Shown piece by piece: positions 6,430 to 47,551 of a DNA stretch of 64,000 nt. The stretch comes from Nitrospirota bacterium (GTDB taxonomy: Bacteria; Nitrospirota; Thermodesulfovibrionia; Thermodesulfovibrionales; JdFR-88): assembly GCA_021825295.1 (NCBI GenBank), contig JAKAHV010000002.1:70189-134188 (forward strand). The letters are read 5' to 3'. The notes beneath the pieces were generated by a model, which made no database searches, was not told where the DNA came from, and saw nothing but the letters and a program-made list of their open reading frames with translations. Position 1 is the stretch's first letter, and the number at the start of each line of letters is the position of its first letter. Position numbers and translations under genes: made by a program.

Positions 6430-7886
6430 ATTCCCCTTTTTTCATTTTCAACCGTGCCCATGAATTCCTTGTTCCAGTAAGGAGTGGTGAGCCTGCTCAC
6501 CTTTTCGCCGTATTCGGACATCCCTTTGTGGTAATCCGCGTCCCCGAGGGCCTGCTCCGCGTTCGTGTCGAGTGGTTTCGCGCCGAACTGCCTTATGACG
6601 CCCAGCGCCTTGTCGAAGTGGTCCCTTATGATGCAGGGCACGATGAAGTTTTGCACCTTTTCCGCGGGCTGGGCGTAGCCGTAGTCGTTTTGCCATTTGC
6701 GTATGGACTTGAAATAATCGGAAAAAAGCACGTCGTTCAGGGTCTTGCCTGCCCTGTAGAGGTCGTGGATGTTTGATAGGTAATAGGGGAAAAAGGCGCA
6801 GGGGGCCACGTTCCCGTTCCAGTCTATGTAGAAATAGCCGCCCGGTCTGCCCGCGGAGATGCAGCCCAGGGAATAGGGCCCGCCGTTCCAGAAATCGACA
6901 AGAAACAGGTTGGATTCGTGTATCATGCGCTGCTCGTTCTTGAAGAGGGCCAGCCGCTGCTCCGGGGTGATCATGAGGTCCAGGGTGTAGCTCCTGCCTA
7001 TGGGCATGTAATGGAATATCCAGCCGTAAACGGCCCCTTTCCGGCCGAAATAGAGGTCGGAGAATCCGGCGGACATTATGGCGTCCACGTTGAAGCGCGT
7101 GGCGGTTACGCTTACGCCAAACGGCACGCCGGCCTCCTTCAGGTTGTCCATCGCCCGCATTATCCTGCCGAAGACCCCCTTGCCCCGCCGCCCGTCGGTC
7201 TCTTTCTCGAAACCCTCCACCGAGATGGCCGGCGTGATGTTGCCCAGCTCTGCCATCCTCCTTGCCGTCTCCTTGTCTATCAGGGTGCCGTTGGTGTACA
7301 TCATGAAGTAGACGCCGCTGTTTTCCTCCAGGAGGTCGAAAAGCCCTTTGCCGCTGTCCCTGTCGCGGTAGAGCAGGGGTTCGCCGCCCGATATCACGGT
7401 GAAGTGGGACCCCCAAAGCTCTTTTTTCTCCTTGATGATCCTGTCGAGTATGCCGTAGCCCAGGGTCTCCGCGCTGCCCGCGGAGCTTGAGGCATAGCAG
7501 CCGGTGCAAAAGAGGTTGCATTTCCTGGTGGGGCTTATGGTCAGAAACGCCGGGGGGTATATGCCGTATTTTTCATGGAAATGCCGGGTGCGGTCTTCCT
7601 CTCCCAGCAGGATATTGCCTATGAAATTCCTCGTTATCGCCCCGAAGACCCCGGCGGATATGCGTCCGTCCGACAGCGCCGCGTTGACCGTGTGGAGCAG
7701 GTTTCCGAGCATCTTCGCGCGCGCCTTCTGGATGAGGGGCGGCCTGTCGCCGGTGTTTTTAATCACGAAATTCTCATGGAGCCTTTCTTCCGCTTTCTTA
7801 AGCAGAAGCCTCCGGATGACGTCCTGCCTCAGACAGAAATCAAGGACGCCCGGAGACAGGCGCTTCCAGATGAGGTTGAATTTCAT
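6426..7886 (-). CDS. Radical SAM protein with C-terminal Cys-containing (SPASM/twitch-like) extension, function unknown
   Basis: CNLFCTGC (CxxxCxxC) cluster motif, GGEPLL, and a later GCISAGR...[10 protein letters not shown] block. Its stop overlaps the longest tkt start by 4 nt. Confidence 0.75.
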
Positions 7887-8031
7887 GACGTCTCCTTTCG
7901 CTCATGGGGGACTGGAGGTCCGCCGCGCCAGAGACCGCGTGGAACTTTAGAGCTGCGATTGCCTGCGGTTGCAGTGTTTTTTAAATGCTCCCACTTAAAA
8001 TCCGCCTTGTCAACAATGCGCGCCCTACGGC

Positions 8032-8276
8032 AGTGTCTCAGTTTAGCAATGCAGCCGGGCGATGGCGGATTGAGCGACATGGCTTTTTTTCGTAGCCGGT
8101 GCCGGCGAAGCGAAGCGGCAGCATCTCCGGCTGTCTGAGCCGAAGGGGATCAGTCCCGAGGGACCTGTCCCTGAAGGCGAGTTTCGGAGATGCAGCGGAG
8201 CGAGGCCATGCAGCGGCAGAAAAAAAGCCCAAAAAAGCGAAATCGCCACGGTCCGGCAAATCAAACTAAGGCACTG
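8032..8276. repeat. Repeat family A copy 1 (MITE-like, imperfect TIR about AGTGCCTCAGTTTGGCA)
   Basis: Collinear with 43792-44120 apart from an internal module of about 100 nt. The ends agtgtctcagtttagca / caaactaaggcact are inverted. Confidence 0.6.
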
Positions 8277-8295
8277 ATATGTATTGCCGGCGCGT

Positions 8296-9558
8296 TTAGT
8301 CCTGGCCGTGGCACTTGTTGCAGAGGCTCCTCTGGTACGTCCCGTAGAGGGCGGCGATGTCGCGGCCGTAATAGGGGGCGTTGTTGACAAAGACATGGGT
8401 GACCCTGTCGCCTGTGTTGGCCGGATGGGACTGGGCCAGGAACTCCGCCTGGGTGTCCCATCTGGTCATCTCCGGGAAGGCGGAGGCGTGCGCCCTGTGG
8501 CAGCTCAGGCACATGGCGTTTGCGGGGGGGGACGTGGCCGGGCCGGCGGTGCTTGTGTTGCTCAGGACGGCGCCAAGGCCCCGTTCGAACGGGACGAGGG
8601 AGAGATAGGAGTTGTTTGAGTTGCCGCTGAAATCCCCGGATTTGACATAGGAATTGTAATTGTCCGCAATGCCCCTGGCAAACACGGCGGAAATGCCCGC
8701 CGGGTGGCGGTGCAGGGCGGCCGTGCCGTTGGTGGAGTTCAGGAACTTGTCATGGCAGTTGGCGCACCATTCGGACATGCCGTAGCCGTAGTCCGTGTGG
8801 CGCAGGTTGTCGTAGGTCTCCGTAAACGGCGGGGGGACCGAGACGGCCATGGGGGCGTTATAGGCGAAAGTCATGAGGAACTCGTGGTTGCCCGTATAAA
8901 ACCTGTCGCCAAGCAGCCTGTAATTGCCTGCCTGATACCCGCTTGGCACGGCCAGCCCGTATGAGCCGGACTCCACGATCGCCTCCTGGCCCGCCAGGGA
9001 GCCCCCGTTGGCCCGCCCGTGGGGGTCGTGGCAACTGTTGCAGGCAAGCGCGCTGGCTGGATATCTGATCGTGCTGCCGGGCGCCACCGTGAGCGAGGTG
9101 TCGGCGGTAAGCCCGAAGTCCGCGGCGATTATGTTGTGGCCGTGTTCCTGCCCCAGGACCGTGACGGGCTGCAGGGAAACGCCGCCGGCCTGCGGCGTGT
9201 AGGTGACATCCTCGGTGAGCCAGAAGAAATCTCCACCCGGGGTGAATGCGCTGCCGTCGGTGGTCAGCACGGATATGGGGGATTTTGAGTGGCAGTTAAG
9301 ACAGGTGGAGCTGGCATCGGAGCCCTGAAGCAGGTACGTGTTGGCCGCCTGGCCCGCCACGCCCGCCGGCAGGCCGCCGGCAACGGTGGCATTGCTGGCG
9401 CCGGGCGTTACAAAATTGTTGTGCATCGTATGGCAGCCCTCGCAATAGCCGACGCCTCCATTATGGAACGCCGAGGCGGTCTTGCCGCCGGCCGCCGCCA
9501 GGGCATAGATGACCATCACAAGGGCGGCTGCGGTGAATATGGACCTGGGGAATTTCAT
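8296..9558 (-). CDS. Secreted hexahaem c-type cytochrome, OmcS-family paralog 1 (most divergent)
   Basis: Start taken at MKFPRS, with GGAGG 7 nt upstream. Signal peptide, then FHNGGVGYCEGCHTMHN. Six CxxCH motifs: CEGCH, CLNCH, CNSCH, CANCH, CLSCH, CNKCH. C-terminus YQRSLCNKCHGQD. Confidence 0.8.
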   Translation of the reverse strand: MKFPRSIFTAAALVMVIYALAAAGGKTASAFHNGGVGYCEGCHTMHNNFVTPGASNATVAGGLPAGVAGQAANTYLLQGSDASSTCLNCHSKSPISVLTTDGSAFTPGGDFFWLTEDVTYTPQAGGVSLQPVTVLGQEHGHNIIAADFGLTADTSLTVAPGSTIRYPASALACNSCHDPHGRANGGSLAGQEAIVESGSYGLAVPSGYQAGNYRLLGDRFYTGNHEFLMTFAYNAPMAVSVPPPFTETYDNLRHTDYGYGMSEWCANCHDKFLNSTNGTAALHRHPAGISAVFARGIADNYNSYVKSGDFSGNSNNSYLSLVPFERGLGAVLSNTSTAGPATSPPANAMCLSCHRAHASAFPEMTRWDTQAEFLAQSHPANTGDRVTHVFVNNAPYYGRDIAALYGTYQRSLCNKCHGQD

Positions 9559-9732
9559 GGGCCGGCCTCCTGGCCGCATGCGGGGGTTTTTTGTTGGCCG
9601 TCCGGTTTGGATTACGCCTGACTCTGGAGAACCGCGGAGTGCTGCCCTGAACCTGTCAATTACGAACTCTCCGGCGATGCGCCGGCTGATTAAAACCTAT
9701 CAGGAATCCAGTGGGATGTCAATCTTTAAAAC

Positions 9733-9756
9733 AAAAAACCCCTGAAAATTCAAGGG
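9733..9756 (-). terminator. Rho-independent terminator of the csp gene
   Basis: Minus-strand RNA reads cccuug-aauuuu-cagggg followed by UUUUUU, immediately after the csp stop. Confidence 0.6.
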
Positions 9757-9790
9757 CTTTTTGTCTTTTATATACCGGGTTATATCGTGG

Positions 9791-9994
9791 TTATGCTTTT
9801 TTCTCCACGTTCACGGCCCTTGGCCCCTTTGGCCCCTGTTCGACGTCGAAGCTGACCGCCTGGCCTTCGGCAAGTGTCTTGAACCCGTCTGATTTTATTG
9901 CGGAGAAATGGACGAAGACTTCGTTGCCGTCATCCGCGGTGATAAAACCGAACCCCTTCGCTTCGTTGAACCATTTTACTTTGCCTGTCTGCAT
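9791..9994 (-). CDS. cspA: Cold-shock protein (CspA family)
   Basis: 67 aa; [15 protein letters not shown] and VFVHFSAI carry the RNP1/RNP2 motifs. Confidence 0.92.
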
Positions 9995-10110
9995 CTGGTG
10001 AAAAGACCTCCTTGAATTTTTAAAAAAATAACCCTATAGCCTCTCCGGGTAATGCAAAACGTGAATACTTTGCCATGGGTCCGCCCCTAAAGTCAATCTT
10101 TCTGCCAGTT

Positions 10111-10318
10111 GGGCCTGCGTCAGATTTGTGGGGCTGGTATCTGCCTGTTCCTGGAGAGAAGCGAAGAGCGGACGGATACGACGGGCCCCATCATGACAAT
10201 GGCTTGATATTCGCCCTTGGCGGCAATCCCGCCGCAGGGGGCTTACGCCCGGAACCGCGCGCTGAACGGAAGGGGCAGGCAGATGCCACGCCTTGCCCCA
10301 CAAATCTGACGCAGGCCC
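10111..10318 (+). mobile_element. MITE family B copy 1 (24-nt perfect TIR gggcctgcgtcagatttgtggggc)
   Basis: Left end 10111-10134 is the exact reverse complement of right end 10295-10318. A second copy lies at 19781-20016. There is no coding capacity. Confidence 0.75.
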
Positions 10319-10376
10319 CTGCCAGTTTTCTCACCCCTCAATCTTTCCCTATCAGGCGGTCTAAATCCAATTTTAG

Positions 10377-10409
10377 GTGAAATCACGCAAATGCCATGTG
10401 GGATTTCAC
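10377..10409. promoter_or_regulatory. Inverted repeat GTGAAATC-N16-GATTTCAC, candidate enhancer (UAS) for the sigma-54 promoter downstream
   Basis: 8-bp perfect arms. A related AAATCACGCAgAAT..GGGATTTC site sits upstream of the second sigma-54 promoter (12213-12238). Confidence 0.4.
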
Positions 10410-10565
10410 AGAGCAGGGGCGGATAGCGCCAGCGCCTCCCGAATTGGGAAACCCTGGCCAATCACCAGTGCTTTTTAAAAAGTTTGTTGTTTTTAAATGA
10501 TTTTATTTGAGTTTCTATTCAAACAATTAAATATATAGATAATTGCGAATATTTTAAAAAAGCCT

Positions 10566-10581
10566 TGGTATGCAAATTGCT
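10566..10581 (+). promoter_or_regulatory. Sigma-54 (-24/-12) promoter candidate for OmcS-family paralog 2
   Basis: TGGTATGCAAATTGCT has GG-N10-GC spacing exactly as in the TGGCAC-N5-TTGCW consensus. An AT-rich tract with an IHF-like ATTCAAacaaTTA (10517-10529) lies just upstream. Confidence 0.6.
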
Positions 10582-10740
10582 CGTACGCAAGCCAAGAGTG
10601 ATAAGAAGCAAAGGCCCCGGGGCTCAGTTGAGGCAAGGGCCGGAGCTGGACGGGAGGAGGTGGTAGTGCAGGCGAGAGTATTGGGGAGTGCATAGGACTT
10701 GCCGCCATGCCCGGCAAAAATGGTTTTCCGGGTTGGCTGG

Positions 10741-10815
10741 CGGCAAACTGGATCCGGCCGTTATCGCCGGGAGGCGAAAAAGCTGCGAGGGTTTTGGCCC
10801 CGGGCGCGGCTGCCG
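10741..10815 (+). promoter_or_regulatory. Candidate GEMM-I-like (cyclic-dinucleotide) riboswitch fold in the paralog-2 leader
   Basis: Three-way junction drawn by hand. P1 is cggca/tgccg (10741-45/10811-15). GGCAAAC is followed by hairpin tccggc-cgttatc-gccggga, then junction ggCGAAAAAGC, then P3 ctgcg...cgcgg. It resembles the GGCAAAC...GACGCAAAGC consensus as I recall it, with deviations. Confidence 0.3.
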
Positions 10816-10864
10816 GAGAAGTAACCGGACATTAAACAAAGAAGGAAGAATTAGGGGGAAATTG

Positions 10865-12139
10865 ATGAAAGCAGTCAAAGTCGCATTAATCCTTATGGCC
10901 GCCGCCCTTGTCGTCTTCGGGCTTAGCGGCGCGGCCTTCGCCTTCCATGACGGCGGCGTCGCGTACTGCGAGGGCTGTCATACGATGCACAACTCGATGG
11001 GCGGAGTGTCCAACAGCGTAGGCGGCTGGGGCTCACCCGGCGTCACCCACAACCAGTACCTGCTGAAGGGCACGGACCCCAGCTCCACCTGCCTCAACTG
11101 CCACTCCCACAAGGGTGCGAAATACAACATCTTCAGCACGGACGGCAGCTCGTATACTCCCGGCGGTGACTTCTACTGGATCACCCAGACCTATACCTAT
11201 TCGCCCTGGACCGGCAACACCGCCACCTCCCAGGCGCAGAACCACGGCCATGACATAGTTGCGGCCGACTTCAGCCTCAGCACGGATACCATCCTTACGG
11301 CTGCCCCCGGCAACGGCACGCAGCCGGTGTATTACGCCAGCAACCTGGCCTGCAACTCCTGCCACAACCCGCACGGCCGCGTAAACGGCGGTACGAGGAA
11401 CGGCCAGAAGCCTGTCGGGCAGTCCGGCTCTTACGGCTATACCCCGGTAACCGGGACGATAAACGGCAACTACAGGCTCCTCGCGGACACCTACTATCAG
11501 CCTGGCGATCCGTCCGTCTATGATCCGGCCCCGTCCGGCGTCGCGGGTTATCCCCAGGCCTTTACTTACATCGCAAACGCCCCGGTCGCGGTCGCGCCGG
11601 CTACCTTCAGAGAGGTTGAAGGTCTTGGCACGGCTGGCATATCGCACACCGACTACGGCAACGGCATCGCCGAGTGGTGCGCCAACTGCCACCAGGGCTT
11701 CCTGAACAACGACGCAACCGGCACGACCGGCACCCACAGGCACCCGGCAGGCGACAGCGCCACCCTGGGCCCCACGATCGCCGGCTTCTACAACGAGTAC
11801 GTCTCCACCGGCAACATAACCGGCACGTCGGCTAACGCCTTCCTGCCTCTGGTCCCGTTTGAAAGAGGCGCGGGCGCAACCCTGAGCTCGACCAGCACGG
11901 CGGGCCCGGACGGCACCAACGCGGCAGTTATGTGCCTCACCTGCCACAGGGCTCATGCCTCCGCCTTTGACGAGGGCACCAGGTGGGATACTCAGGCAGA
12001 GTTCATCTCCGCCTCGAGCGCTCTTATAGCCACCGCCAAGCCCTGGGTCGCCAACGCCCCGTACTACGGCTGGGACATCGTGGCCAACATGGGCTCGTAT
12101 CAGAGGCAGCTCTGCAACAAGTGCCACATCCAGGACTAA
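10865..12139 (+). CDS. Secreted hexahaem c-type cytochrome, OmcS-family paralog 2
   Basis: The real start is ATG 10865 (MKAVKVALILMAAAL...); the 10688 extension covers the leader. AFA|FHDGGVAYCEGCHTMHN, six CxxCH, C-terminal YQRQLCNKCHIQD. Confidence 0.85.
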   Translation: MKAVKVALILMAAALVVFGLSGAAFAFHDGGVAYCEGCHTMHNSMGGVSNSVGGWGSPGVTHNQYLLKGTDPSSTCLNCHSHKGAKYNIFSTDGSSYTPGGDFYWITQTYTYSPWTGNTATSQAQNHGHDIVAADFSLSTDTILTAAPGNGTQPVYYASNLACNSCHNPHGRVNGGTRNGQKPVGQSGSYGYTPVTGTINGNYRLLADTYYQPGDPSVYDPAPSGVAGYPQAFTYIANAPVAVAPATFREVEGLGTAGISHTDYGNGIAEWCANCHQGFLNNDATGTTGTHRHPAGDSATLGPTIAGFYNEYVSTGNITGTSANAFLPLVPFERGAGATLSSTSTAGPDGTNAAVMCLTCHRAHASAFDEGTRWDTQAEFISASSALIATAKPWVANAPYYGWDIVANMGSYQRQLCNKCHIQD

Positions 12140-12171
12140 TCCTGGCGGCATAGCCTTATACGTGTAGCAGC

Positions 12172-12198
12172 GCGGGGGCGGACACCGTCCGCCCCCGC
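12172..12198 (+). terminator. 12-bp GC stem-loop after paralog 2 (no U-tract)
   Basis: gcgggggcggac-acc-gtccgcccccgc read directly. No T-run follows, so it may be a terminator or an RNA-stabilising hairpin. Confidence 0.4.
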
Positions 12199-12212
12199 AT
12201 CTCCATCTGCGC

Positions 12213-12238
12213 TAAATCACGCAGAATGGGGGATTTCG
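12213..12238. promoter_or_regulatory. Second copy of the AAATCACGCA..GGGATTTC motif, candidate UAS
   Basis: taaatcacgcagaatgggggatttcg lies about 90 nt upstream of the sigma-54 promoter at 12324 and is similar to 10377-10409. Confidence 0.35.
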
Positions 12239-12323
12239 CCTGTAAAAGAGGCTTGTTCGACTTTTTGCCTTTTTGAGGGTTTTTTTGATGTTTTTCCGCC
12301 GGTTATTGTATTATGAATCCTCC

Positions 12324-12339
12324 TGGTATGTTAATTGCT
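12324..12339 (+). promoter_or_regulatory. Sigma-54 promoter candidate for the NHL gene (and possibly paralog 3)
   Basis: TGGTATGTTAATTGCT matches the 10566 site at 13 of 16 positions, with GG-N10-GC spacing. It lies 27 nt before ATG 12366. Confidence 0.6.
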
Positions 12340-12365
12340 CCCAAGCTATAGCGGAGGGCTTGCAA

Positions 12366-13355
12366 ATGGAGGATGGCAAAGTGGGCGAAAAGGCAGAGTA
12401 CGGAAGGAAAAGGTTTACGGCGGCCCTTCCTGTCTTGTTTCTCCTCCTTGCGGTCTTTCCCGGCCCCTCGCGGGCGTACGGCCTGAGGGTCAGCTACCAG
12501 TACAACCTGGCCGACTCCACCGGCGACATACCGTTTAGCTACGGCGCAAAGCTGGCCATAGACAAGTCCAGGGGCGAAGTCTACGTGACCGACTCCATGC
12601 AGGGCGGGGTCACGATTTTTAATACGACCGGAATGAGGGTCTACCGGTTCGGGGACCAGGCCGACCTGGGCTTCATAGAGGACGTCGCCATCGACAGGAA
12701 GGGCGACATCTTCACCCTTTCCTATAACGACACCAGGCAGCTCTTTTTCATCGGCCTCTGCAACTACAGGGGGGAGCTGCAGTCAAAGATTACGGTCAGC
12801 GGCCTTCCGTCAGGCTTTTCCCACTTCAAGCCCGGCCGCATCTTCTACAACAAGGGCATAATTTACCTCGCGGACGACGAGGACATGCTGGTGGCGCTTG
12901 TAAACCTCCAGGGCAAGTGCATCAGGACTTACCAGTTGAACAAAATCCTTAAATTTACGCCCAAGATGATCAGGGACGACAACAGCGCCTTCGGGTTCGC
13001 GATAGACGATGATGGCAACATGTATCTGACCATCCCGACGCTTTTCCGGGCATACCGGATCACGCCGGACGGGAAGGCCGAGACTTTTGGGAGGGGTGGC
13101 AGCGGTCCCGGCAGGTTCGGGGTCGCCGCCGGGATAGCCGTGGACGGCAACGGCTATATCTACGTCTCGGACAGGCTGCGCTGCTGCGTGCTCGTCTTCA
13201 ACAAGGACCTCAACTTCGTGACCGAATTCGGCTACCGGGGCTTCGGGCCGGGCTCTCTCATAGTCCCCAGCGACGTGGTCGCGGGTCCTGACGGGAGGAT
13301 TTACGTCAGCCAGGCAGGCAACCGGGGTGTGAGTGTTTTCAGCGCGGCTTATTAG
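12366..13355 (+). CDS. NHL-repeat beta-propeller protein, secreted
   Basis: Start at MEDGKV after gcggaggg. Signal-like LPVLFLLLAVFPGPSRA. Repeats of the type GPGRFGVAAGIAVDGNGYIYVSDRLRCCVLVF. Confidence 0.75.
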   Translation: MEDGKVGEKAEYGRKRFTAALPVLFLLLAVFPGPSRAYGLRVSYQYNLADSTGDIPFSYGAKLAIDKSRGEVYVTDSMQGGVTIFNTTGMRVYRFGDQADLGFIEDVAIDRKGDIFTLSYNDTRQLFFIGLCNYRGELQSKITVSGLPSGFSHFKPGRIFYNKGIIYLADDEDMLVALVNLQGKCIRTYQLNKILKFTPKMIRDDNSAFGFAIDDDGNMYLTIPTLFRAYRITPDGKAETFGRGGSGPGRFGVAAGIAVDGNGYIYVSDRLRCCVLVFNKDLNFVTEFGYRGFGPGSLIVPSDVVAGPDGRIYVSQAGNRGVSVFSAAY

Positions 13356-13609
13356 AACAGCCGGAAACAGGGAAGGGGGTGATTGCATAAGGGCAGCAAA
13401 AGGGTCTGCCAACCGGCCAAGGGGAAGATTTGCCGGCCGGCGGCAGGCAGGCTCCGGCCCGTCCTGCATCAGGTAGCTTTCCGTACGGGGTTATCCCCTG
13501 GAGCATCCAACGGGGCCCCCTCAAAAGGGGGAGGATGAACGGGGATATGAACGGAAAGGGCCCGGGACGGGACTCGGGAAAAGGGGGAAACCAATAACAA
13601 GGAGGGATC

Positions 13610-14902
13610 ATGAAAGCAACAAGGCTTGCTCTTGTCCTCATGGCCGCGGCCGCGCTCGTCTTCGCGTTTGCCGGCGCGGCATTCGCGTTCCATGACGGCG
13701 GCGTCGCGTTCTGCGAGGGCTGCCACACGATGCATAACTCGCTGGGCGGCGTGTCAAACAGCGTAAGCGGCTGGGGCAGCCCCGGCGTCACCCACAACCA
13801 GTATCTCCTGAAGGGCACGGACCCCAGCTCCACCTGCCTCAACTGCCACTCCCATTCGGGCGCGAGCTATCAGGTTCTGAGCACGGACGGCAGCGCCTAC
13901 ACTCCTGGCGGCGACTTCTACTGGCTCAGCCAGACCTACACCTATTCGCCCTGGTCCGGCAACACTTCGACCTCCCAGGGGCAGAACCACGGCCATACCG
14001 TGGTTGCGGCCGACTTCGCACTGAGCACGAGCACCATACTCACGGTGGCCCCCGGGGCCGGCACTCAGCCGGTGTATTACGCCAGCAACCTGGCCTGCAA
14101 CTCCTGCCACAACCCGCACGGCCGTGTAAACGGCGGCACCAGGAACGGCCAGGCGCCGGTTATGGGCTCCGGCTCTTACGGGAACACGGCTCCCAGCGGC
14201 ACGATACTTGGCAACTACAGGCTCCTCGCGGACACCTACTACGCACCTGGCGACCCGACCGTCTATGATCCGGCCCCGTCCGGTATCGCGGGCTATCCCC
14301 AGGCATTTACTTACATCGCCAACGCCCCCATAGCGGTAGCTCCGAATGTCGGCCACAGTGCCGCATCGATGCATGAGGTTGAGGGCCTGGGCACGACGGG
14401 TATCGAACACACCGACTACGGCTCGGGCGTCGCCGAGTGGTGCGGCAACTGCCACCAGGGTTTCGTGAACAACGCCGCAGACGGGACGAGCACTACCCAC
14501 AGGCACCCGGCCGGGGATACCGCCACTCTGGGCGCCACAATCGCCGGCTTCTATAATGAATATGTCTCGACCGGCAACATACACGGCACCAGCGCGAATG
14601 CCTACCTGCCTCTGGTCCCGTTTGAAAGGGGCGCGGGCGCAACCCTGAGCGCAAGCAGCACGGCGGGCCCGGACGGGGTTAAGTCGGCCGTCATGTGCCT
14701 TAGCTGCCACAGGGCGCACGCCACCGCCTTTGACGAGATGACCAGGTGGGACACCAGCGCCGATTTCATCTCCGCCTCGAGCGCTCTTATAGCCACCGCC
14801 AAGCCCTGGGCCGCCAACGCCCCGTACTACGGCTGGGACATCGTGGCCAATATGGGCTCTTACCAGAGAAGCCTCTGCAACAAGTGCCACATCCAGGATT
14901 AA
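13610..14902 (+). CDS. Secreted hexahaem c-type cytochrome, OmcS-family paralog 3
   Basis: AFA|FHDGGVAFCEGCHTMHN, six CxxCH, YQRSLCNKCHIQD. Long runs are nucleotide-identical to paralog 2. Confidence 0.85.
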   Translation: MKATRLALVLMAAAALVFAFAGAAFAFHDGGVAFCEGCHTMHNSLGGVSNSVSGWGSPGVTHNQYLLKGTDPSSTCLNCHSHSGASYQVLSTDGSAYTPGGDFYWLSQTYTYSPWSGNTSTSQGQNHGHTVVAADFALSTSTILTVAPGAGTQPVYYASNLACNSCHNPHGRVNGGTRNGQAPVMGSGSYGNTAPSGTILGNYRLLADTYYAPGDPTVYDPAPSGIAGYPQAFTYIANAPIAVAPNVGHSAASMHEVEGLGTTGIEHTDYGSGVAEWCGNCHQGFVNNAADGTSTTHRHPAGDTATLGATIAGFYNEYVSTGNIHGTSANAYLPLVPFERGAGATLSASSTAGPDGVKSAVMCLSCHRAHATAFDEMTRWDTSADFISASSALIATAKPWAANAPYYGWDIVANMGSYQRSLCNKCHIQD

Positions 14903-14927
14903 TCACCGTGGCTTAGAGGTATCTATC

Positions 14928-14957
14928 GGGGGCGGGGTTTGTTCCGCCCCCTTTTTT
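14928..14957 (+). terminator. Rho-independent terminator 1 after paralog 3
   Basis: 8-bp stem gggggcgg/ccgccccc followed by TTTTTT. Confidence 0.7.
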
Positions 14958-14963
14958 CCATCA

Positions 14964-14994
14964 GGGGCCGGCTCACCGCCGGCCCCTCTTTTTT
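14964..14994 (+). terminator. Rho-independent terminator 2 after paralog 3 (tandem)
   Basis: 9-bp stem ggggccggc/gccggcccc followed by tcTTTTTT. Confidence 0.7.
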
Positions 14995-15214
14995 GGTGAT
15001 AGGAAATTTTAGAACCTCAAAAATAAAATTTTATTGTTTGCATTTCCCTTTGGAATTTGTTGAAAGGCCGTCATACCGGTCCCGCCGGGGCGGGATATCC
15101 AGTGACTTTGCCGTGGAGCCTTAACGTCACTGGATTCCGGATTACTAAATCTGGAATGACGGCTTAAAATTCAATAGATACCCTGCAACTTGCTGCAGGG
15201 TGATTCATTTCCTC

Positions 15215-15243
15215 TTGGTATCCCGCCCGTTTTTCACTATAAT
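15215..15243 (+). promoter_or_regulatory. Sigma-70-like promoter candidate far upstream of paralog 4
   Basis: TTGGTA-N17-TATAAT read directly. It lies about 445 nt upstream of ATG 15688, with REP-like hairpins in between. A similar TATAATGGA occurs at 17709 upstream of paralog 5. Confidence 0.3.
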
Positions 15244-15687
15244 GGAGTGGATTGCGCATCCCCAAAGTTTGACTTTTTCCCTTTTCGCATGCCCCGGGGG
15301 CATGCCCACAGTGCCTGCTGGTTTATGAATTTCTGTATGTTTTTCAATAGGCTTGAATATGTGATTTTCAGGGAGTTCTAACAGGATGCGGAAAAACTAT
15401 TTTCGAGCCTTTTATCCGTAATTCCCGCGAAGGCGGGAATCCAGGTTTTTCAATGACTTATATTTAAAGTGGATTCCAAGCCGGGGAATGACGAATTTGA
15501 GACTTTTTCAACAGCCTGCTAATCAATCGTCTTCATCGGGGAAAGGAGGTGGCTTAAAAAAGATAAAAAATCGGGGCCCTTTAAAAGTTTCACAGGGAGA
15601 AGCGGGGCCTGCCGGGGGCTTGCTGCCGGCGGGCATGGAGAAACAGCGGGGAAAAGGGCATATATCGATAAGGGAGGGTATTTATTG

Positions 15688-16977
15688 ATGAAAGCTCTGA
15701 AGACCGGACTCGTCCTGCTGGCCGCGGTCTTTCTGGTTGCCGCATTGGGCGGGACTGCCATCGGCTTCCATGACGGCGGCGTGGCCTACTGCGAGGGCTG
15801 CCACACGATGCACAACTCGCTTGGCGGCGTGTCAAACAGCATTCATGGCGCGGGCACCCCCGGCACCGCTTTAAACCAGTATCTTCTCAAGGGTACGGAC
15901 CCAAGCTCCACCTGCCTGAACTGCCACTCGCAGCCGACCGGCAACAACATCCAGGTGCTGAGCCTGGACGGCACCGCCTATACGCCGGGCGGCGACTTCT
16001 ACTGGCTCAAGGAGACCTACACCTATTCTCCATGGGCCGGCGCCACCCTCACCTCAAACGGGCAGAACCACGGCCATACCGTGGTGGCAATCGACTTCTC
16101 CCTCACAACGAGCACCATACTTACCGTGGCCCCGGGGCGGGGCACCCAGCCGGAGTATTATTCCAGCAACCTGGCCTGCAACTCCTGCCATAACCCGCAC
16201 GGCCGGGTCGACGGAGGCACCAGGAGCGGCAAGGTGGGGCCGGTCGCGCAGTCCGGCTCCTACGGCTACGCCCCCATAGCCGGGACCGTAAACGGCAACT
16301 ACAGGCTCCTCGCGGACATCGGCTACGCCCCCGGCGACCCCGCCGTCTTCGGTCCGCAACCCTCCGGCGTGGCAGGCTATCCCCAGGCGTTTACTTACAT
16401 CGCGAACGCCCCGGTGGCGGTCTCGCCTATCAACTTCAAGGAGGTTGAGGGCCTTGGCGCGGCCGGCATAGAGCACGTCGATTACGGGACGGGCGTTGCC
16501 GAGTGGTGCGCCAACTGCCACCAGGGATTTTTGAACGACGCCTCTCCCCACGGCACATCCACCTACCACCGCCATCCGGCCGGCGACACCGCCAGGCTCG
16601 GCGGCCTCGCAGACCTCTATAACTCATACGTCAAATCTGGCGTCTATACCGGCGCGCAGGCGACCTCCTATCTGCCCCTTGTGCCATTTGAAAGGGGGAC
16701 AGCCACAGGGCTGGCCGCCAACAGCCCGGCGGGGCCGCTTGCGGGCGGGGCGGGCAGCGAAGCCGTCATGTGCCTTAGCTGCCACAGGGCGCACGCGAGC
16801 GCATTCGACGAGATGACAAGGTGGGACACGACCGCGGAGTTCATGTCCGCATCGAGCGCGCTGATCGCGACCGCCAGGCCCTGGGCCACCAACGCGCCTT
16901 ATTACGGCTGGGACATAGTGGGCCAGATGGGCTCCTATCAGAGGAACCTCTGCAACAAGTGCCATGTGCAGGATTAA
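15688..16977 (+). CDS. Secreted hexahaem c-type cytochrome, OmcS-family paralog 4
   Basis: ATG 15688, preceded in frame by TTG 15685. AIG|FHDGGVAYCEGCHTMHN, six CxxCH, YQRNLCNKCHVQD. Confidence 0.85.
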   Translation: MKALKTGLVLLAAVFLVAALGGTAIGFHDGGVAYCEGCHTMHNSLGGVSNSIHGAGTPGTALNQYLLKGTDPSSTCLNCHSQPTGNNIQVLSLDGTAYTPGGDFYWLKETYTYSPWAGATLTSNGQNHGHTVVAIDFSLTTSTILTVAPGRGTQPEYYSSNLACNSCHNPHGRVDGGTRSGKVGPVAQSGSYGYAPIAGTVNGNYRLLADIGYAPGDPAVFGPQPSGVAGYPQAFTYIANAPVAVSPINFKEVEGLGAAGIEHVDYGTGVAEWCANCHQGFLNDASPHGTSTYHRHPAGDTARLGGLADLYNSYVKSGVYTGAQATSYLPLVPFERGTATGLAANSPAGPLAGGAGSEAVMCLSCHRAHASAFDEMTRWDTTAEFMSASSALIATARPWATNAPYYGWDIVGQMGSYQRNLCNKCHVQD

Positions 16978-17063
16978 CCCCTCGCTCTTCCGCCGGTGTG
17001 ACCCCTCTCCCACCGGGAGAGGGTTTGGGTGAGGGGGACCAAGCCCCAAGGTGAGAATGAACC

Positions 17064-17108
17064 GGGGCCGGCAATTTTTTATTTTTAGTTGCCGGCCCCC
17101 ATCTTTTG
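17064..17108 (+). terminator. Hairpin terminator after paralog 4
   Basis: 11-bp stem ggggccggcaa/ttgccggcccc with an AT-rich loop, then a weak T-run (atcttttg). Confidence 0.5.
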
Positions 17109-17336
17109 CGCCTCCTTCTGCTCCGATAAATCCGTCATTCCCCGGCTTGACCGGGGAGTTCACGTTCCGCGCCTCCTTCAGTCTCGATTGCATCGTTAGA
17201 GTCACCAAGGCGGCCATAAGTAACGCGGCACAGTTTGTCATCGTCCCGAAAATGCCCCTTCCCCTGCCTTGTGCCTGGTATCCGCCCGGCCCTTTCGTTC
17301 GGCTCGCGCGGTTCCGGACGAGTACAAACGGCGCTG

Positions 17337-17590
17337 GGCAAAAGGCGGATGGGAACATGGCTCGCATCATTCTCGCCGGCCATCCCTGGCCGGCTCCGAG
17401 GCTTTTGCCTATCCGGACGTCCATGTCCGGATTACGGCAAAAAAATCCGCTCCCATGCCCCCATCCGCCTTTTGCCTTACACGCGATTCGCTTATACCCG
17501 GTCGTTGGAGGAGTCGCCGGACGGAAAAAAAGGATTGAGAGATCCCGCCAAGGCGGGACAGCGGCAGAAAAAAAGCAGCAAAAAAAGAAA
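17337..17590. repeat. Repeat family A, internal-module copy (no TIRs)
   Basis: It shares ggcaaaaggcggatgggaacatggctcgcatc...atccgccttttgccttacacgcgattcgcttataccc and gcggcagaaaaaaagc with 43820-44070, and carries an extra insertion in the hairpin. Confidence 0.5.
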
Positions 17591-17970
17591 GATTATAGCG
17601 CACGGGCTTTTCGCCTTAAAGTTGTTCTGATACCCCCAACCATTTATTTATCTTTTACCGCGTATTTTGCCGCACTATCACCCCATGGCATATTGCCTTC
17701 CATTCAGGTATAATGGATAAATTACAATTTTAGGTTGTGAATGCGTGAAAAGGCGCAGGATGTGGAATTGAGGTTCACAAAAGGCTTTTTGTACCGGTAA
17801 GGGGGGTGATTGCAAAAAGGGGAAAAAGGCCAGCCCGCGGGCTTTATCGCCCGGCGGGCAGTCTCCGGCCCGTCTTTGGCGGGAGGCTCAGGAAGATATC
17901 CGGATGCGTGACGGGGCCCGGGGGAAGAAACAATGGGGGAAAATAAATCCTTCAATCAGGGAGGGTATTG

Positions 17971-19260
17971 ATGAAAGCATTGAAGATCTGGCTCATACTC
18001 ATGGCCGCGGCCTTGGCCGTTTTCGCCTTTAACGGCGCGGCCCTTGCGTTCCATGACGGCGGCGTGGCCTACTGCGAGGGCTGCCACACGATGCATAACT
18101 CGGTAGGCGGGGCTGTCGTCAATACACCTGGCGGGGTAAAGGGCACTGTCGGCAACGGCCTCAATGAGTATCTACTGCAGGGCTCGGACCCGAGCTCCAC
18201 CTGCCTCAACTGCCACGCGAAAAATACGATGGGCGCGAACATCCAGGTGCTCAGCTCTGACGGCACCGCCTATACGCCGGGCGGCGACTTTTACTGGGTC
18301 AACAAGACCTACACCTATTCCCCGTGGGCCGGCGCAAACATGACCTCGGAGGGGTATAACCACGGCCACAGCGTCATAGCCTCCGACTTCGGCCTTTCCG
18401 AGGACTCTCACTTCGCGGGCAATGTGGGACCTGGCGGGACCTATCCCGCCTCCAACCTGGCCTGCAACTCCTGCCACAACCCGCACGGCCGCGTCAACGG
18501 GGGCACAAGAAACAGCGAGGGGCCGGTGAAGGCTTCCGGCTCCTACGGCCCGGGTTTCTGCACTCCTGACGCCAGCGGGATATGCGGCAACTACAGGCTC
18601 CTGGCGGACGGCCTCTACAATGCCGGCGACCCCGCTGTCTTCGGAAGCTCCTCAGCGCAGGGTTTCCCGGTGCAAGGCTATCACTACACCGCCAACGCGC
18701 CCGTTGCCGTGGCGCCGCAGGATTTCCGGGAAAAGGAGGACGGCTACGGCACAGGTTCCGGCATCGAGCACGTGGATTACGGCACCGGCATCGCCGAGTG
18801 GTGCGCCAACTGCCACGGCGCTTTCCTGAACAACAGCGGAGGGACGGGCACGGGCTACCACCGCCACCCGGCGGGCGACAGCGCCAAGCTTGGCGGCCTG
18901 GCCAGCCTCTACAACTCATATGTAAAGTCCGGCGACTATGCAGGCGACAGCAGCAAATCCTATCTGCCGCTGGTGCCTTTTGAAAGGGGCGTGGCGACGG
19001 GGCTCGTCGCAAACAGCCCCGCGGGGCCTGACGGCGCAAACGCGGCCGTCATGTGCCTGAGCTGCCACAGGGCGCACGCCTCGGCATTCGACGAGATGAC
19101 CAGGTGGGACACCAGCGCGGAGTTCATGTCCGCCTCTAGCGCGCTTATCGCCACCTCGAAGCCATGGGCCGCCAACGCCCCGTATTACGGCTGGGACATA
19201 GTGGGACAGATGGGCTCCTACCAGAGGAACCTCTGCAACAAGTGCCACGTGCAGGATTAA
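17971..19260 (+). CDS. Secreted hexahaem c-type cytochrome, OmcS-family paralog 5
   Basis: ALA|FHDGGVAYCEGCHTMHN, six CxxCH, YQRNLCNKCHVQD. An extra Cys pair (GFCTPDASGIC) is unique to this copy. Confidence 0.85.
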   Translation: MKALKIWLILMAAALAVFAFNGAALAFHDGGVAYCEGCHTMHNSVGGAVVNTPGGVKGTVGNGLNEYLLQGSDPSSTCLNCHAKNTMGANIQVLSSDGTAYTPGGDFYWVNKTYTYSPWAGANMTSEGYNHGHSVIASDFGLSEDSHFAGNVGPGGTYPASNLACNSCHNPHGRVNGGTRNSEGPVKASGSYGPGFCTPDASGICGNYRLLADGLYNAGDPAVFGSSSAQGFPVQGYHYTANAPVAVAPQDFREKEDGYGTGSGIEHVDYGTGIAEWCANCHGAFLNNSGGTGTGYHRHPAGDSAKLGGLASLYNSYVKSGDYAGDSSKSYLPLVPFERGVATGLVANSPAGPDGANAAVMCLSCHRAHASAFDEMTRWDTSAEFMSASSALIATSKPWAANAPYYGWDIVGQMGSYQRNLCNKCHVQD

Positions 19261-19296
19261 CGTTCGCGGCATAACGCATCTTTAATATGGCACAGG

Positions 19297-19323
19297 GGCG
19301 GGGCTTGCCCCGCCACGGTTTTT
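19297..19323 (+). terminator. Terminator 1 after paralog 5
   Basis: 7-bp stem gggcggg/cccgccc (19297-19314), then acggTTTTT. Confidence 0.5.
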
Positions 19324-19328
19324 ATAAG

Positions 19329-19356
19329 GGGCCGGCATTCGCCGGCCCTTTTGTTT
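19329..19356 (+). terminator. Terminator 2 after paralog 5
   Basis: 8-bp stem gggccggc/gccggccc followed by TTTTgTTT. Confidence 0.65.
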
Positions 19357-19780
19357 CCGGTTGTAAAAAGCCGGAAGAGCCTGTTGAATTTTTATGGCAA
19401 GCTTGAGTAGGCATTGTACCGTTTTCATAAACTGTTTATCTGGACAATGCCACGGCCTGGCGGATTATGATGGGGAACGGCAGTGCTTTTCAAGAAGCCC
19501 TGCCGCCGGCAGGGAAAGGAGTTTTTATGGGGAAGATCAGTCTCGGGCGAGAAATGCAATTAACCGTCATGAACCCGGGTGTCCGATTGAACGCTTTGAA
19601 CAGCCTGGCTAAAAAAGTTGTTATAAAAGCATAGGTTGCGGTTTTCATCTTGAACGGAAAACGCCAAAAAAAGGCAATGGCGCATCCTGCATCCCGCCGG
19701 GATTCAGTGGAAGCTGAATTATGGGCGTATGCGTATTAACCAAACAGGACATTTCTATTTGGCGTTGACATTTGCGATGG

Positions 19781-20016
19781 GGGCCTGCTTCAGATTTGTG
19801 GGGCCCGTATCTGTCTGTTCCCGGAGAAAAACGTATCTGCCTGTTCCTGGAGAGAAGCGAAGAGCGGACGGATACGAAGTGCTGCATCTTGACGACTTTC
19901 CGCCATTCGCCCATAAAGACGAACTAAACAAAGCCGTCCGAGTACGTCCGGAACCGCGCGCTGATCGGAAGGAGCAGGCAGATGCCCCGCCTAGCCCCAC
20001 AAATATGACGCAGGCC
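19781..20016 (+). mobile_element. MITE family B copy 2 (same orientation as copy 1)
   Basis: Ends are gggcctgcttcagatttgtggggc ... gccccacaaatatgacgcaggcc. The interior is collinear with 10111-10318 plus a short internal duplication (gtatctgYctgttccYgga). Confidence 0.7.
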
Positions 20017-20137
20017 TTTTTGTGATGTATGCGATTGACCGGGCGGGACGCCATTTTATATAATTACCAGTTTTCTATGAAGGCGTTTTTTTAAACTTCT
20101 GATTCGCAGGCGGGTTTGTAAGGAGGTTTTCTAATTC

Positions 20138-21544
20138 TTGGGTAAGCTTGCAAAAATCCCGGTCCTCGCGCTCCTGCTGATCTTCGGATGCCAGATAAAA
20201 CCACAACAGCTCCAGCCTGCCCTTGTGCATGAAGGGGAGGTTTATGTCTACATGGAGCCGCTGCCGCTGAAGGCCCAGAGGTTGAGCTTCACCTTCAACG
20301 GCGTCTATTGCATCCGGGCGGACGGCGCCTTGATACCCCTCAGGCTTCACATGGCCGGGTTCGACTCCGTGCTGGCGGGCAGGCAGAGGCTTGTGGCGCG
20401 CGGCATACTTCCGGCCGGTCAATACACCGGGCTTGCCCTTTCCGTGAAGGACGCCCACCTGAGATCGGAGGAAGGCATGCAGTCTTCCCTCCTCGTTCCG
20501 GACAAGCCGGTGAGGCGCGAGCTGCCCTTCACGGTCAGGGAAAGGGGCGGCGTGGTCATCTCCATGACCCTCCGGTACGGCCAGGCGGTCCGGGCGGGGT
20601 TCAATTTCACGCCCGCCTTCGATCTGAAGATACCCGATAAACCCGTCGATGCGCTTTTGGGCTATGTGGTGAATACCGGTTCGAACGACATCACTGTCTT
20701 TAACAAGCTGGCGATGGAGGTGACGGGGGTCATCGTCACCGGGGCGGGCCCGATGGGGATGGCCCTGGACCCGAACCTGAAGAGGGGTTATGTGGCGCTC
20801 TCCCGGGAGGACGCGATCGACGTGATAGACATGACGGAGGGCGCGGTGGTGGGCCGCATACGGCTTAACACGGGGGACAGCCCCAGCCAGGTGGCGCTTA
20901 CGCCGGACGGCGGCGCGCTGCTGTCCGTCAACACCGGCTCCAACACCGTAAGCGTTATAGACCCCGTCTCCTTCGTGGAGCGAAGCCGGATAAAGGTGGG
21001 GATACAGCCCGTCTACATACAGCTTGACCCTTCCGGCAAGAGGGCCTACGTCTTCAACTATTTCTCGAACACCATCTCCATAATAGACCTTACCTCGGGC
21101 TCCGTGGTGGCCACCGTCCCCACGGACCCCGCCCCCATAAGGGGCGCTTTTGACCGCAGCGGCGGCAAGCTTTACATAATTAACGAGAGCACTCCCTATC
21201 TCACGGTCCTGGACACCTCCAGCCTTGCCGTCATAAAGCGGCAGTTCGCCGGGCAGGGCATGAGGGCCATAAAGGTGGACACGAGATCGGACCTCATCTA
21301 CATAGGGAAAATGAACACCCCCCTTCTTGAGGTTTACGACCCGTTTACCTTCATACCGGTCGATTACATAAAAGCCGGTGAGGACCCGGCCTACATGACT
21401 ATAGACAACGACGAGAACAACCTCTGCGTGGTTGACCCCGTCCTGCGGTCGCTCATTTTCATAAGCCTGTCGAGCAGGAAGACCGTCTCCATGATCGACG
21501 TCGGCAGCGGCCCGTACTGGGTGAGCCTCATGGGGGAGAGGTAA
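20138..21544 (+). CDS. Lipoprotein with YVTN-type beta-propeller repeats
   Basis: TTG start after AAGGAGG. Lipobox LLLIFGC. Repeats of about 40 residues such as GYVVNTGSNDITVFN, SVNTGSNTVSVIDP and YVFNYFSNTISIIDL. Confidence 0.7.
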   Translation: MGKLAKIPVLALLLIFGCQIKPQQLQPALVHEGEVYVYMEPLPLKAQRLSFTFNGVYCIRADGALIPLRLHMAGFDSVLAGRQRLVARGILPAGQYTGLALSVKDAHLRSEEGMQSSLLVPDKPVRRELPFTVRERGGVVISMTLRYGQAVRAGFNFTPAFDLKIPDKPVDALLGYVVNTGSNDITVFNKLAMEVTGVIVTGAGPMGMALDPNLKRGYVALSREDAIDVIDMTEGAVVGRIRLNTGDSPSQVALTPDGGALLSVNTGSNTVSVIDPVSFVERSRIKVGIQPVYIQLDPSGKRAYVFNYFSNTISIIDLTSGSVVATVPTDPAPIRGAFDRSGGKLYIINESTPYLTVLDTSSLAVIKRQFAGQGMRAIKVDTRSDLIYIGKMNTPLLEVYDPFTFIPVDYIKAGEDPAYMTIDNDENNLCVVDPVLRSLIFISLSSRKTVSMIDVGSGPYWVSLMGER

Positions 21545-23874: not shown

Positions 23875-23970
23875 CGGATATATGAAAAGACTATGGCGGG
23901 AGGGCGGAAAATATTGACAAACAATAATGGAAACTATCATAATTACCGAACCAAATGTTCGGGAACAATA

Positions 23971-24537
23971 ATGGCTGACCTGAAGCGAATCGTCCTGCTT
24001 GCCGTCGTGCTGGCCCTTGCGGGCTGCGGCGGAAAGGCCGGCGTTTATCACGACAAGAACATGGATTTCGGCTCCATCCGCACCGTGGCCGTGATGCCGT
24101 TTATGAACCTCACTTCGGACGCCGGCGCGGCTGAAAGGGTGAGGGACGTCTTTTCGGACTCGCTTCTTGCCACTGGCGCGGTGTACGTGCTTCCCTCCGG
24201 CGAGGTGGCCCGCGGGCTGGCCAGGGCGGGGGTGAACACGCCTTCCGCGCCCGCCCCGTCCGAGGTCAAGACCTTCTGCAGTTTTGTGAAGGCTGACGCG
24301 GTCATCACCGGGGTCATAAGGGAATACGGGGAGGTCAGAAGCGGCAATACCTCCTCCACCATCATCTCCGTCAGCCTTCAGATGATGGAGGCGCAGAGCG
24401 GCCGGATTGTATGGTCGGCCTCCGCCACTGAAGGCGGCATCACCATCTGGGACCGGCTTTTTGGAGGGGGCGCCGAGCCTATGAACGCCATTACGCAAAA
24501 AGCCGTTGATGAGCTTATCAAGAAGCTTTTCGCGTAG
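23971..24537 (+). CDS. Small lipoprotein (LpoB/DUF799-like, VAVMPFMNLT motif)
   Basis: Start at MADLKRIVLL; lipobox LALAGC. The TVAVMPFxNxT block is typical of that lipoprotein fold. The family call is tentative. Confidence 0.5.
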   Translation: MADLKRIVLLAVVLALAGCGGKAGVYHDKNMDFGSIRTVAVMPFMNLTSDAGAAERVRDVFSDSLLATGAVYVLPSGEVARGLARAGVNTPSAPAPSEVKTFCSFVKADAVITGVIREYGEVRSGNTSSTIISVSLQMMEAQSGRIVWSASATEGGITIWDRLFGGGAEPMNAITQKAVDELIKKLFA

Positions 24538-47178: not shown

Positions 47179-47251
47179 TCCTGGGTAGCTCAGCCGGCAG
47201 AGCGGGTGGCTGTTAACCACTTGGTCGGGGGTTCGAGTCCCTCCCCAGGAG
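47179..47251 (+). tRNA. tRNA-Asn (anticodon GTT)
   Basis: Cloverleaf folded by hand: acceptor tcctggg/cccagga, D arm gctc-agccggca-gagc, anticodon arm ggtgg-ctGTTaa-ccact, T arm ggggg-ttcgagt-ccctc, discriminator g. Confidence 0.9.
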
Positions 47252-47272: not shown

Positions 47273-47551
47273 ATGCCTTTCTATGCGTATATCTTACAAA
47301 GCGAATCCTCGGGCGGTTATTATTGCGGATCAACTTCTGATATAGCCAGAAGGATTCAGCAGCATAACGACTCCAAATATAAGCTCACTTTGACTACGAA
47401 GCGTTTTCCTGGCCCCTGGAAGTTGATCTATTGCGAAGAACATTGCGATAGAAAGTCGGCTATGAAACGTGAAAAATACATCAAAGCAAGAGGTATTAGC
47501 CGTTTCCTGGCTGAATTTCAGCCGGCAGAGTCCCGCCCGAGGCGGGATTAA
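47273..47551 (+). CDS. Small stand-alone GIY-YIG nuclease-domain protein, copy 1
   Basis: FYAYILQSESSGGYYCGSTSDIARRIQQHN...KREKYIK fits the GIY...YIG...R...E pattern of YhbQ-like GIY-YIG proteins of 90-100 aa. The last 17 codons or so are read from tRNA-like DNA. Confidence 0.75.
   Translation: MPFYAYILQSESSGGYYCGSTSDIARRIQQHNDSKYKLTLTTKRFPGPWKLIYCEEHCDRKSAMKREKYIKARGISRFLAEFQPAESRPRRD

Follow-up and report, generated by a model that had tools for sequence, protein, structure and literature searches.

The question raised by this locus is why one bacterial genome should carry five neighbouring genes for OmcS-type hexahaem cytochromes, and whether such an array is an isolated curiosity, a system that generates subunit variants, or an enlarged form of a nanowire operon of a known kind. 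The array occupies positions 8296 to 19260 of a 64,000-nucleotide stretch of DNA (hereafter the window; contig JAKAHV010000002.1 of assembly GCA_021825295.1, forward-strand positions 70,189 to 134,188), and its host is not Geobacter but a Nitrospirota metagenome-assembled genome (MAG) from a lineage known only from metagenomes (NCBI label Nitrospiraceae). We consider it likely that the five genes, termed P1 to P5, encode secreted OmcS-family hexahaem cytochromes that lie beside osc genes and serve extracellular electron transfer. With similar confidence, we regard the array as the subunit-encoding end of an osc (omcS-companion) operon that has been expanded in an uncultured member of the Nitrospirota.

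Five complete genes of the OmcS family

The five open reading frames (ORFs) of about 420 to 430 residues described in the initial annotation were all recovered, with P1 on the minus strand at 8296-9558 (420 residues) and the others on the plus strand: P2 at 10865-12139 (424 residues), P3 at 13610-14902 (430 residues), P4 at 15688-16977 (429 residues) and P5 at 17971-19260 (429 residues). The signal peptide and the exact set of six CxxCH motifs at equivalent positions that had been claimed for each copy were both confirmed. In all five, a hydrophobic N-terminal leader ends in A-x-A (A-I-G in P4) right before FH(D/N)GG, a predicted mature start that aligns with residue 1 of mature OmcS, and cleavage of a Sec signal peptide to leave an F-H mature N-terminus is predicted throughout. 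Every copy is complete, with a start codon, signal peptide and ribosome-binding site (RBS), and none is silent or truncated. Cysteines outside the haem motifs are absent except for one pair in P5, C197 and C205 ('GFCTPDASGIC', window positions 18559-18585), which lies within a variable segment and might be linked by a disulfide bond in a surface loop.

Membership of the OmcS family is established at the level of both sequence and fold, in agreement with the identity first proposed. The five proteins align with Geobacter OmcS over their full length at 39-42% identity, with E-values from 9e-78 for P1 (41% identity) through 2e-87 for P2 and 8e-89 for P4 to 2e-89 for P5, and residues 27-430 of P3 align with residues 1-407 of the OmcS structure 6ef8_A (E=9e-65) with the six haem motifs in register. 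Twelve histidines are invariant across 55 family members, namely the six of the CxxCH motifs together with H28, H42, H129, H170, H299 and H370 (P3 numbering), all six of which align to histidines in OmcS. Among them, H42 corresponds to OmcS His16, reportedly the ligand donated between subunits (Wang et al. 2019). The twelve invariant residues match the axial ligation of the Geobacter protein, and each copy thus retains what bis-His ligation of six stacked haems requires. In OmcS, 12 His residues serve as axial ligands, 11 from the subunit's own chain and one given by a neighbouring subunit to haem 5 (PMC6584659). An AlphaFold2 (AF2) model of P3 was of low confidence (predicted local distance difference test, pLDDT, 60; predicted template modelling score, pTM, 0.63), and its only significant match in the PDB by Foldseek was again OmcS (6ef8_A, E=4e-22, template modelling score 0.63-0.66); given the low confidence of the model, we treat the fold match as supporting rather than decisive. 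Pfam and NCBIfam contain no OmcS-specific model, and the matches in these collections were restricted to a generic paired-CXXCH domain and sub-threshold multihaem models.

Compared with OmcS itself (GSU2504 of G. sulfurreducens; structures 6EF8 and 6NEF), the array proteins have a similar mature length (390-404 versus 407 residues), the same order of six CxxCH motifs, all twelve His ligands, the FHxGG start and an end-to-end alignment. They differ in being only about 40% identical to it, in the length of several internal segments and in a more acidic composition (isoelectric point 5.6-5.9 versus 6.6), as well as in their Nitrospirota MAG host, and their polymerisation is putative. The comparison is not specific to OmcS, as identities to Geobacter OmcS, OmcT and OscC together span 38-42% (38% for P5 against OscC), with OmcT and OscC nearly as good a match as OmcS.

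Within the array, P2 to P5 share 67-83.5% amino-acid identity pairwise, P1 is only 54-55% identical to the rest, and the copies diverge by 17-39% in their DNA. Near-identity among P2 to P5 is found in the first 17 mature residues, the haem-5 motif and the C-terminal ~70 residues (83-95% identical), whereas the differences fall in internal segments (46-61, 83-92, 135-154, 191-231, 244-267, 285-295, 320-330 and 348-358 in P3 numbering). The description of nearly invariant N- and C-terminal thirds around a differing centre therefore holds for the C-terminal ~70 residues, while the N-terminal part is mixed and the variable segments are scattered. Similarly, 9 of the 13 motif blocks quoted as shared occur in all five proteins, and each of the other four is disrupted in one or two copies by single substitutions.

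The array within an osc-type operon

The genes that follow P5 correspond to those that accompany omcS in Geobacter. In a blastp comparison with a Geobacter reference locus, obtained through its OmcS protein and with a fetched flank covering OscD to part of OscF, homologues of OscD, OscE and OscF were found directly downstream of P5 in that order. The OscD homologue (20138-21544, plus strand, as are all genes of this series) is a YVTN/YncE beta-propeller protein (Pfam YNCE) with 41.5% identity to Geobacter OscD over its full length (E=6e-129). The OscE homologue (21556-23874), a proposed outer-membrane secretion component of 772 residues without a Pfam family, is 31% identical over its full length (E=3e-100), and the OscF homologue (23893-24537), an LpoB/GNA1162-like lipoprotein by Pfam, is 56% identical to the available part of Geobacter OscF (E=3e-46). 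Probable counterparts of OscG to OscJ come next in the expected order, and the same genes recur in 28-32 of the 79 loci fetched in this study. They comprise a 381-residue protein without a family match (24509-25654), probably OscG from its position, with a homologue in the same position in 32 loci; a SurA-like peptidyl-prolyl isomerase (25749-27599; Pfam Rotamase_2 and SurA_N), probably OscH from its domains and place in the operon; a cytochrome with 26 CxxCH motifs (27623-29611), probably the counterpart of the 26-haem OscI (GSU2495); and a cytochrome with 16 CxxCH motifs (29608-30981), which its Pfam match, haem count and operon position mark as the probable OscJ (GSU2494). Inside the array, between P2 and P3, lies a gene for an NHL-repeat beta-propeller protein (12366-13355, plus strand; Pfam NHL) that is 39% identical over its full length (E=2e-72) to a 315-residue Geobacter protein encoded immediately upstream of omcS. 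Homologues of the NHL protein, OscD, OscE and OscF occur in 38-45 of the 79 loci, the NHL gene in 45.

Our description of the Geobacter operon (Shen et al. 2025) is taken from two papers that cite it (PMC13194489, PMC12977616). As summarised there, the osc operon of G. sulfurreducens comprises omcS, omcT, oscC and accessory genes, with proposed roles in nanowire morphology for OscD, in secretion for OscE, OscF and OscG, and in folding for OscH; GSU2495 (OscI) is a 26-haem protein of ~70 kDa (PMC12977616). The operon so outlined (omcS, omcT, oscB, oscC and oscD-oscK) and the present locus both contain tandem OmcS-family genes and continue with accessory genes in the same order, from the propeller OscD, OscE, the lipoprotein OscF and a further gene to the peptidyl-prolyl isomerase, the 26-haem and the ~16-haem cytochrome, and in both the subunit genes are accompanied by an NHL-repeat gene. 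They differ in the number of subunit-family genes (five here, one of them divergent, versus three in Geobacter), in the place of the NHL gene (inside the array here, upstream of the subunit genes in Geobacter) and in the spermine-synthase-domain gene that lies between copies in Geobacter and has no counterpart between those of the array. The impression of an isolated curiosity is not borne out: the array is probably the leading section of a canonical osc operon, which in Geobacter already contains three paralogues.

The same arrangement is found in a sister MAG (DBS2-1.bin159), where two fetched loci (L001 and L002) together give the order radical SAM gene, P1' on the minus strand, P2', NHL', P3' and then P4', P5' and OscD'-OscJ'. 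Furthermore, proteins identical to those of the window, with their neighbours unchanged, are found on five contigs, one of them of 215 kb.

Copy number was scored over 74 loci, each covering the OmcS-family match and at most 10 kb to either side. One copy was present in 41 loci, two in 27 and three in 3, and locus L056 (on a 566-kb contig of Nitrospirota MAG MFD00008.bin.1.129) carried six tandem copies at 5108-14836. This last locus resembles the window in its Nitrospirota host and in its tandem run of OmcS-family genes, with an NHL gene on one side and oscD/E/F homologues on the other. It differs in that its copies, which form clades of their own, share only 41-48% identity with the window's, and in that two adjacent copies match each other at 99%, a sign of recent duplication or conversion, and one (11862-12942) is split into two ORFs by an apparent frameshift or a sequencing error. 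Multiple copies are also documented in the literature: G. sulfurreducens has three omcS paralogues in the operon and omcJ elsewhere, the omcS gene of G. bemidjiensis is present three times, and a survey across Desulfuromonadia counted 0-5 omcS-like genes in each genome (PMC12977616). Metagenome surveys of iron-rich habitats have, moreover, already recorded OmcS genes of Thermodesulfovibrionia (PMC8478452). Tandem arrays of several copies are thus common, and five intact copies stand at the high end of a known kind of system, which is expanded here.

Two further genes border the region. Directly downstream of P1 on the same strand, a 486-residue radical SAM/SPASM protein is encoded at 6426-7886 (minus strand); its gene is 88% conserved beside the P1 orthologue of the sister MAG and absent from all other fetched loci. 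The protein scores below every specific NCBIfam cut-off, its best sub-threshold matches being NirJ2/AhbD-type haem-modifying enzymes and peptide maturases, and a link to the maturation of P1 is possible. Just past the osc-like genes, at 32020-34275 (plus strand), lies a carbamoyltransferase gene with NodU/CmcH-type N- and C-terminal domains and a C-terminal SxtJ-like domain.

Duplication history and transcription signals

A bootstrapped neighbour-joining tree of the family copies, including those of the sister MAG, other Nitrospirota and Geobacter, united P2 to P5 with their sister counterparts (bootstrap 100) and P1 with its orthologue (100). The P1 clade joined copies from other Nitrospirota MAGs (81) rather than P2 to P5 (15), and P2 paired with its orthologue (94) rather than with P3 (6); the placement of the sister P5 counterpart was not settled. 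These groupings identify P1 as an old paralogue and P2 to P5 as a lineage-specific expansion older than the split of the sister species. Geobacter OmcS and OmcT grouped together elsewhere in the tree (100), and the Geobacter triplication, including the omcS/omcT duplication, and the expansion of the array look independent of each other. Orthologues in the two genomes share 82% identity for P1 and 88% for P2, and the ratios of nonsynonymous to synonymous divergence (dN/dS) against the sister MAG (0.17 for P2, 0.22 for P1, 0.30 for P3 and 0.39 for P5) indicate that each intact copy is probably under purifying selection individually.

The intergenic regions of the array are unrelated to one another apart from a small set of candidate transcription signals. 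A strict sigma-54 pattern (TGG[CT]A[CT][GA]N4TTGC[AT]), searched on both strands of the whole window, yielded only two matches, both on the plus strand: a -24/-12 promoter-like element at 10566-10581 (TGGTATGCAAATTGCT), ~285 nt upstream of P2, and another at 12324-12339 (TGGTATGTTAATTGCT), directly upstream of the NHL gene. The sister locus L001 likewise contains only two matches, at the orthologous positions (7358 and 9151) despite diverged flanks. A loose version of the pattern with two mismatches was not enriched in the search (20 matches versus 30 expected), and it was the strict pattern, taken together with its conservation across species, that proved informative. Sigma-70-like promoters are predicted on the plus strand upstream of P4 (TTGGTA-17-TATAAT, 15215-15243, in a 50-nt block 88% conserved in the sister MAG), upstream of P5 (ATGGCA-18-TATAAT, 17685-17714, in a stretch of ~150 nt that is ~72% conserved) and upstream of the oscD homologue, where a strong element at 20035-20064 (TTGACC-18-TATAAT) matches the consensus at 11 of 12 positions.

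RNA folding of the downstream regions (150 nt in the case of P2) located a hairpin or terminator after each plus-strand copy, as had been claimed: a 12-bp GC-rich hairpin without a T-run after P2 (12172-12198), two canonical intrinsic terminators in tandem after P3 (14928-14987), two GC-rich hairpins after P4, the second with a T-run (17003-17100), and two canonical tandem terminator hairpins after P5 (19297-19351), all on the plus strand. Because of these terminators and of the conserved sigma-54-like and sigma-70-like elements, the prediction that the copies are individually transcribed is supported, and they probably form separate, differently regulated transcription units.

Competing explanations, proposed function and minor features

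Two explanations concern the array itself rather than the role of its products. A mis-assembly that expanded one or two genes of a metagenome bin into tandem copies has to be considered, given that the source is a MAG and that the sister MAG, assembled at ~4x coverage, has a probably broken or mis-joined P4 counterpart. This counterpart (L002, 352-1080) is 84% identical over residues 44-241, has no signal peptide or haem-1 motif and jumps from '...TYIANA' to 'KPWATNAPYYG...', which removes haems 4 and 5; it reflects either gene decay or a mis-join between paralogues. An artefact in the window is nevertheless extremely unlikely because the copies differ by 17-39% in DNA, their spacers are unrelated, the exact proteins and neighbours recur on separate contigs and an independent species has the same gene order. 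The other explanation is that the array is a frequent substrate for gene conversion that makes mosaic subunits, as suggested initially by analogy with pilin cassettes. In its favour, a permutation test of the pairwise homoplasy index (PHI) type gave a marginal p=0.017 and site-pattern clustering p=0.046, synonymous divergence (dS) between the sister counterparts of P2 and P3 (0.32) is below that between orthologues (0.45-0.52), and L056 has its two 99%-identical copies. The quoted 45-nt run does occur exactly twice, in P2 and in P3. No two copies share an exact run of more than 59 nt (P2/P3, over the haem-3 motif), and no stretch of near-identical codons was found. Of 112 informative sites among P2 to P5, 72 back a single topology, (P2,P3)|(P4,P5), and the two alternatives are backed by 17 and 23; in the tree, the partner of P2 is its orthologue and not P3. 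At 155 invariant residues, the fraction of identical codons is 0.69-0.81 among the P2 to P5 paralogues and 0.75-0.79 between orthologues (0.57-0.65 for P1 versus the rest), a pattern that fits a plain duplication history. The likeness to Neisseria-type pilE/pilS is limited to several related filament-subunit sequences lying close together; unlike that system, the array consists of five complete genes with signal peptide, RBS and terminator, without silent, truncated or promoterless cassettes or recent conversion tracts, and its orthologues are distinct across species. A cassette-like variation system is therefore highly unlikely, although some old or limited homogenisation among the copies may have occurred. 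A lower dS by the NG86 method in conserved than in variable segments, seen for paralogues and not for orthologues, was rejected as evidence of conversion, since this dS is biased upward where many residues differ and the test at invariant residues showed no excess.

With respect to function, the reading that we favour is that P1 to P5 serve extracellular electron transfer as OmcS-family cytochromes. Several points weigh against it. The proteins are known here from their genes; in G. sulfurreducens only OmcS forms a known filament, and not OmcT, OscC or OmcJ (PMC12977616). P1 to P5 are about equidistant from OmcS, OmcT and OscC, which rules out a one-to-one transfer of function, and the AF2 model has a pLDDT of only 60. 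In addition, the assignment of OscG to OscJ relies on gene position, domain content and the number of haems and not on direct comparison with the Geobacter proteins, and the promoter calls are consensus matches backed solely by conservation in one sister genome. Because OmcS is the only Geobacter paralogue known to polymerise, homology is not proof of polymerisation, and how many of the five copies polymerise is the main uncertainty. It is conceivable, and we entertain it tentatively, that labour is divided, so that one or a few copies polymerise and the others remain monomeric in the periplasm or at the cell surface, like OmcT or OscC, where they would feed electrons to the wire or prime, cap or anchor it. 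The far greater divergence of P1, its different clade and its opposite strand agree with such a division, as does the position of P5, which is that of oscC directly upstream of oscD; against it, the F-H N-terminus and the complete set of ligands, the His16 equivalent among them, are retained in every copy, none is specifically closer to OscC or OmcT than to OmcS, and the Geobacter triplication looks independent. Rather doubtful, in our estimation, is that P1 to P5 are alternative, separately regulated nanowire subunits with a shared haem core and interface, different surface loops and different promoter types (sigma-54 for P2, sigma-70-like for P4 and P5). Mixed filaments, in which the paralogues co-polymerise through shared interface-forming termini or some act as minor subunits that start or end the wire, appear improbable. 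The near-identical N-terminal residues, haem-5 motif and C-terminal region of P2 to P5 would suit them, but the interface is judged here from sequence alone, the cytochrome nanowire structures in the cited literature are all homopolymers (OmcS is so called in PMC11936953), and separate promoters and terminators speak against a fixed stoichiometric co-expression.

Under the favoured electron-transfer reading, the five proteins would be exported by Sec and loaded with haem in the periplasm, and Osc proteins would then assist their folding, their head-to-tail polymerisation through a donated His and their passage across the outer membrane, as has been proposed for OmcS. The product would be extracellular haem wires that carry electrons towards minerals or partner cells, or away from them. 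The paralogues, which would differ mainly in surface loops and regulation, might provide alternative versions of the wire, or of wire-associated cytochromes, for different conditions. If they are indeed alternative subunits, the surface and redox properties of the wire could be switched according to the electron acceptor, donor or partner, and this would be the first example of a cell in which several OmcS-family paralogues each build a filament of their own.

The locus reveals no new mechanism. In Geobacter it is still debated which paralogues, besides OmcS itself, make wires (PMC12977616), and the locus could help to answer this: it offers five intact paralogues, apparently kept by selection, with transcription signals of their own and assembly genes adjacent, in a phylum distant from Geobacter. 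It provides a natural comparison set for the sequence features that decide polymerisation and for surface-loop variants of a conserved haem wire, and it helps to interpret 'OmcS' matches in metagenome surveys of iron-rich habitats.

Several minor elements lie within or near the array. Between the divergent P1 and P2, at 9731-10110 (minus strand), there is a cold-shock gene (67 residues, CspE/CspA-like) with a candidate cspA thermoregulator leader; gene and leader are 80% conserved over 428 nt in the sister MAG. This cspA-type thermoregulator was the sole Rfam match (76.3 bits versus a gathering score of 78, E=4e-18); with the whole window searched at the gathering threshold and positions 7800-20400 at E<=1, no riboswitch or leader RNA was found upstream of any OmcS-family copy. 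A repeat of ~210-240 nt occurs at 10111-10317 and 19781-20016, with a possible remnant at ~17273-17320; it has terminal inverted repeats of ~45 nt, and its DNA fold is a single long hairpin (z=-7.8). Its two copies, in direct orientation, bracket the four plus-strand OmcS-family genes; compared with the sister MAG, the copy upstream of P2 has been inserted. No match to the exact core of the repeat turned up in the metagenome collection. Its terminal motif of 23-26 nt is present by itself on five metagenome contigs from JGI and is often located where the contig ends, suggesting the terminus of a mobile element that exists in many copies; the copies in the window look like derivatives of the miniature inverted-repeat transposable element (MITE) type. 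Direct repeats around the 9.5-kb array could promote its deletion or duplication.

Elsewhere in the window, a tRNA gene at 47179-47251 is followed by two tandem ORFs of 92 residues each (47273-47551 and 47608-47886), which share at least their first 25 residues, have a low G+C content at third codon positions (GC3 0.48) and gave no NCBIfam match. The pair looks like a small duplicated insertion beside the tRNA gene.

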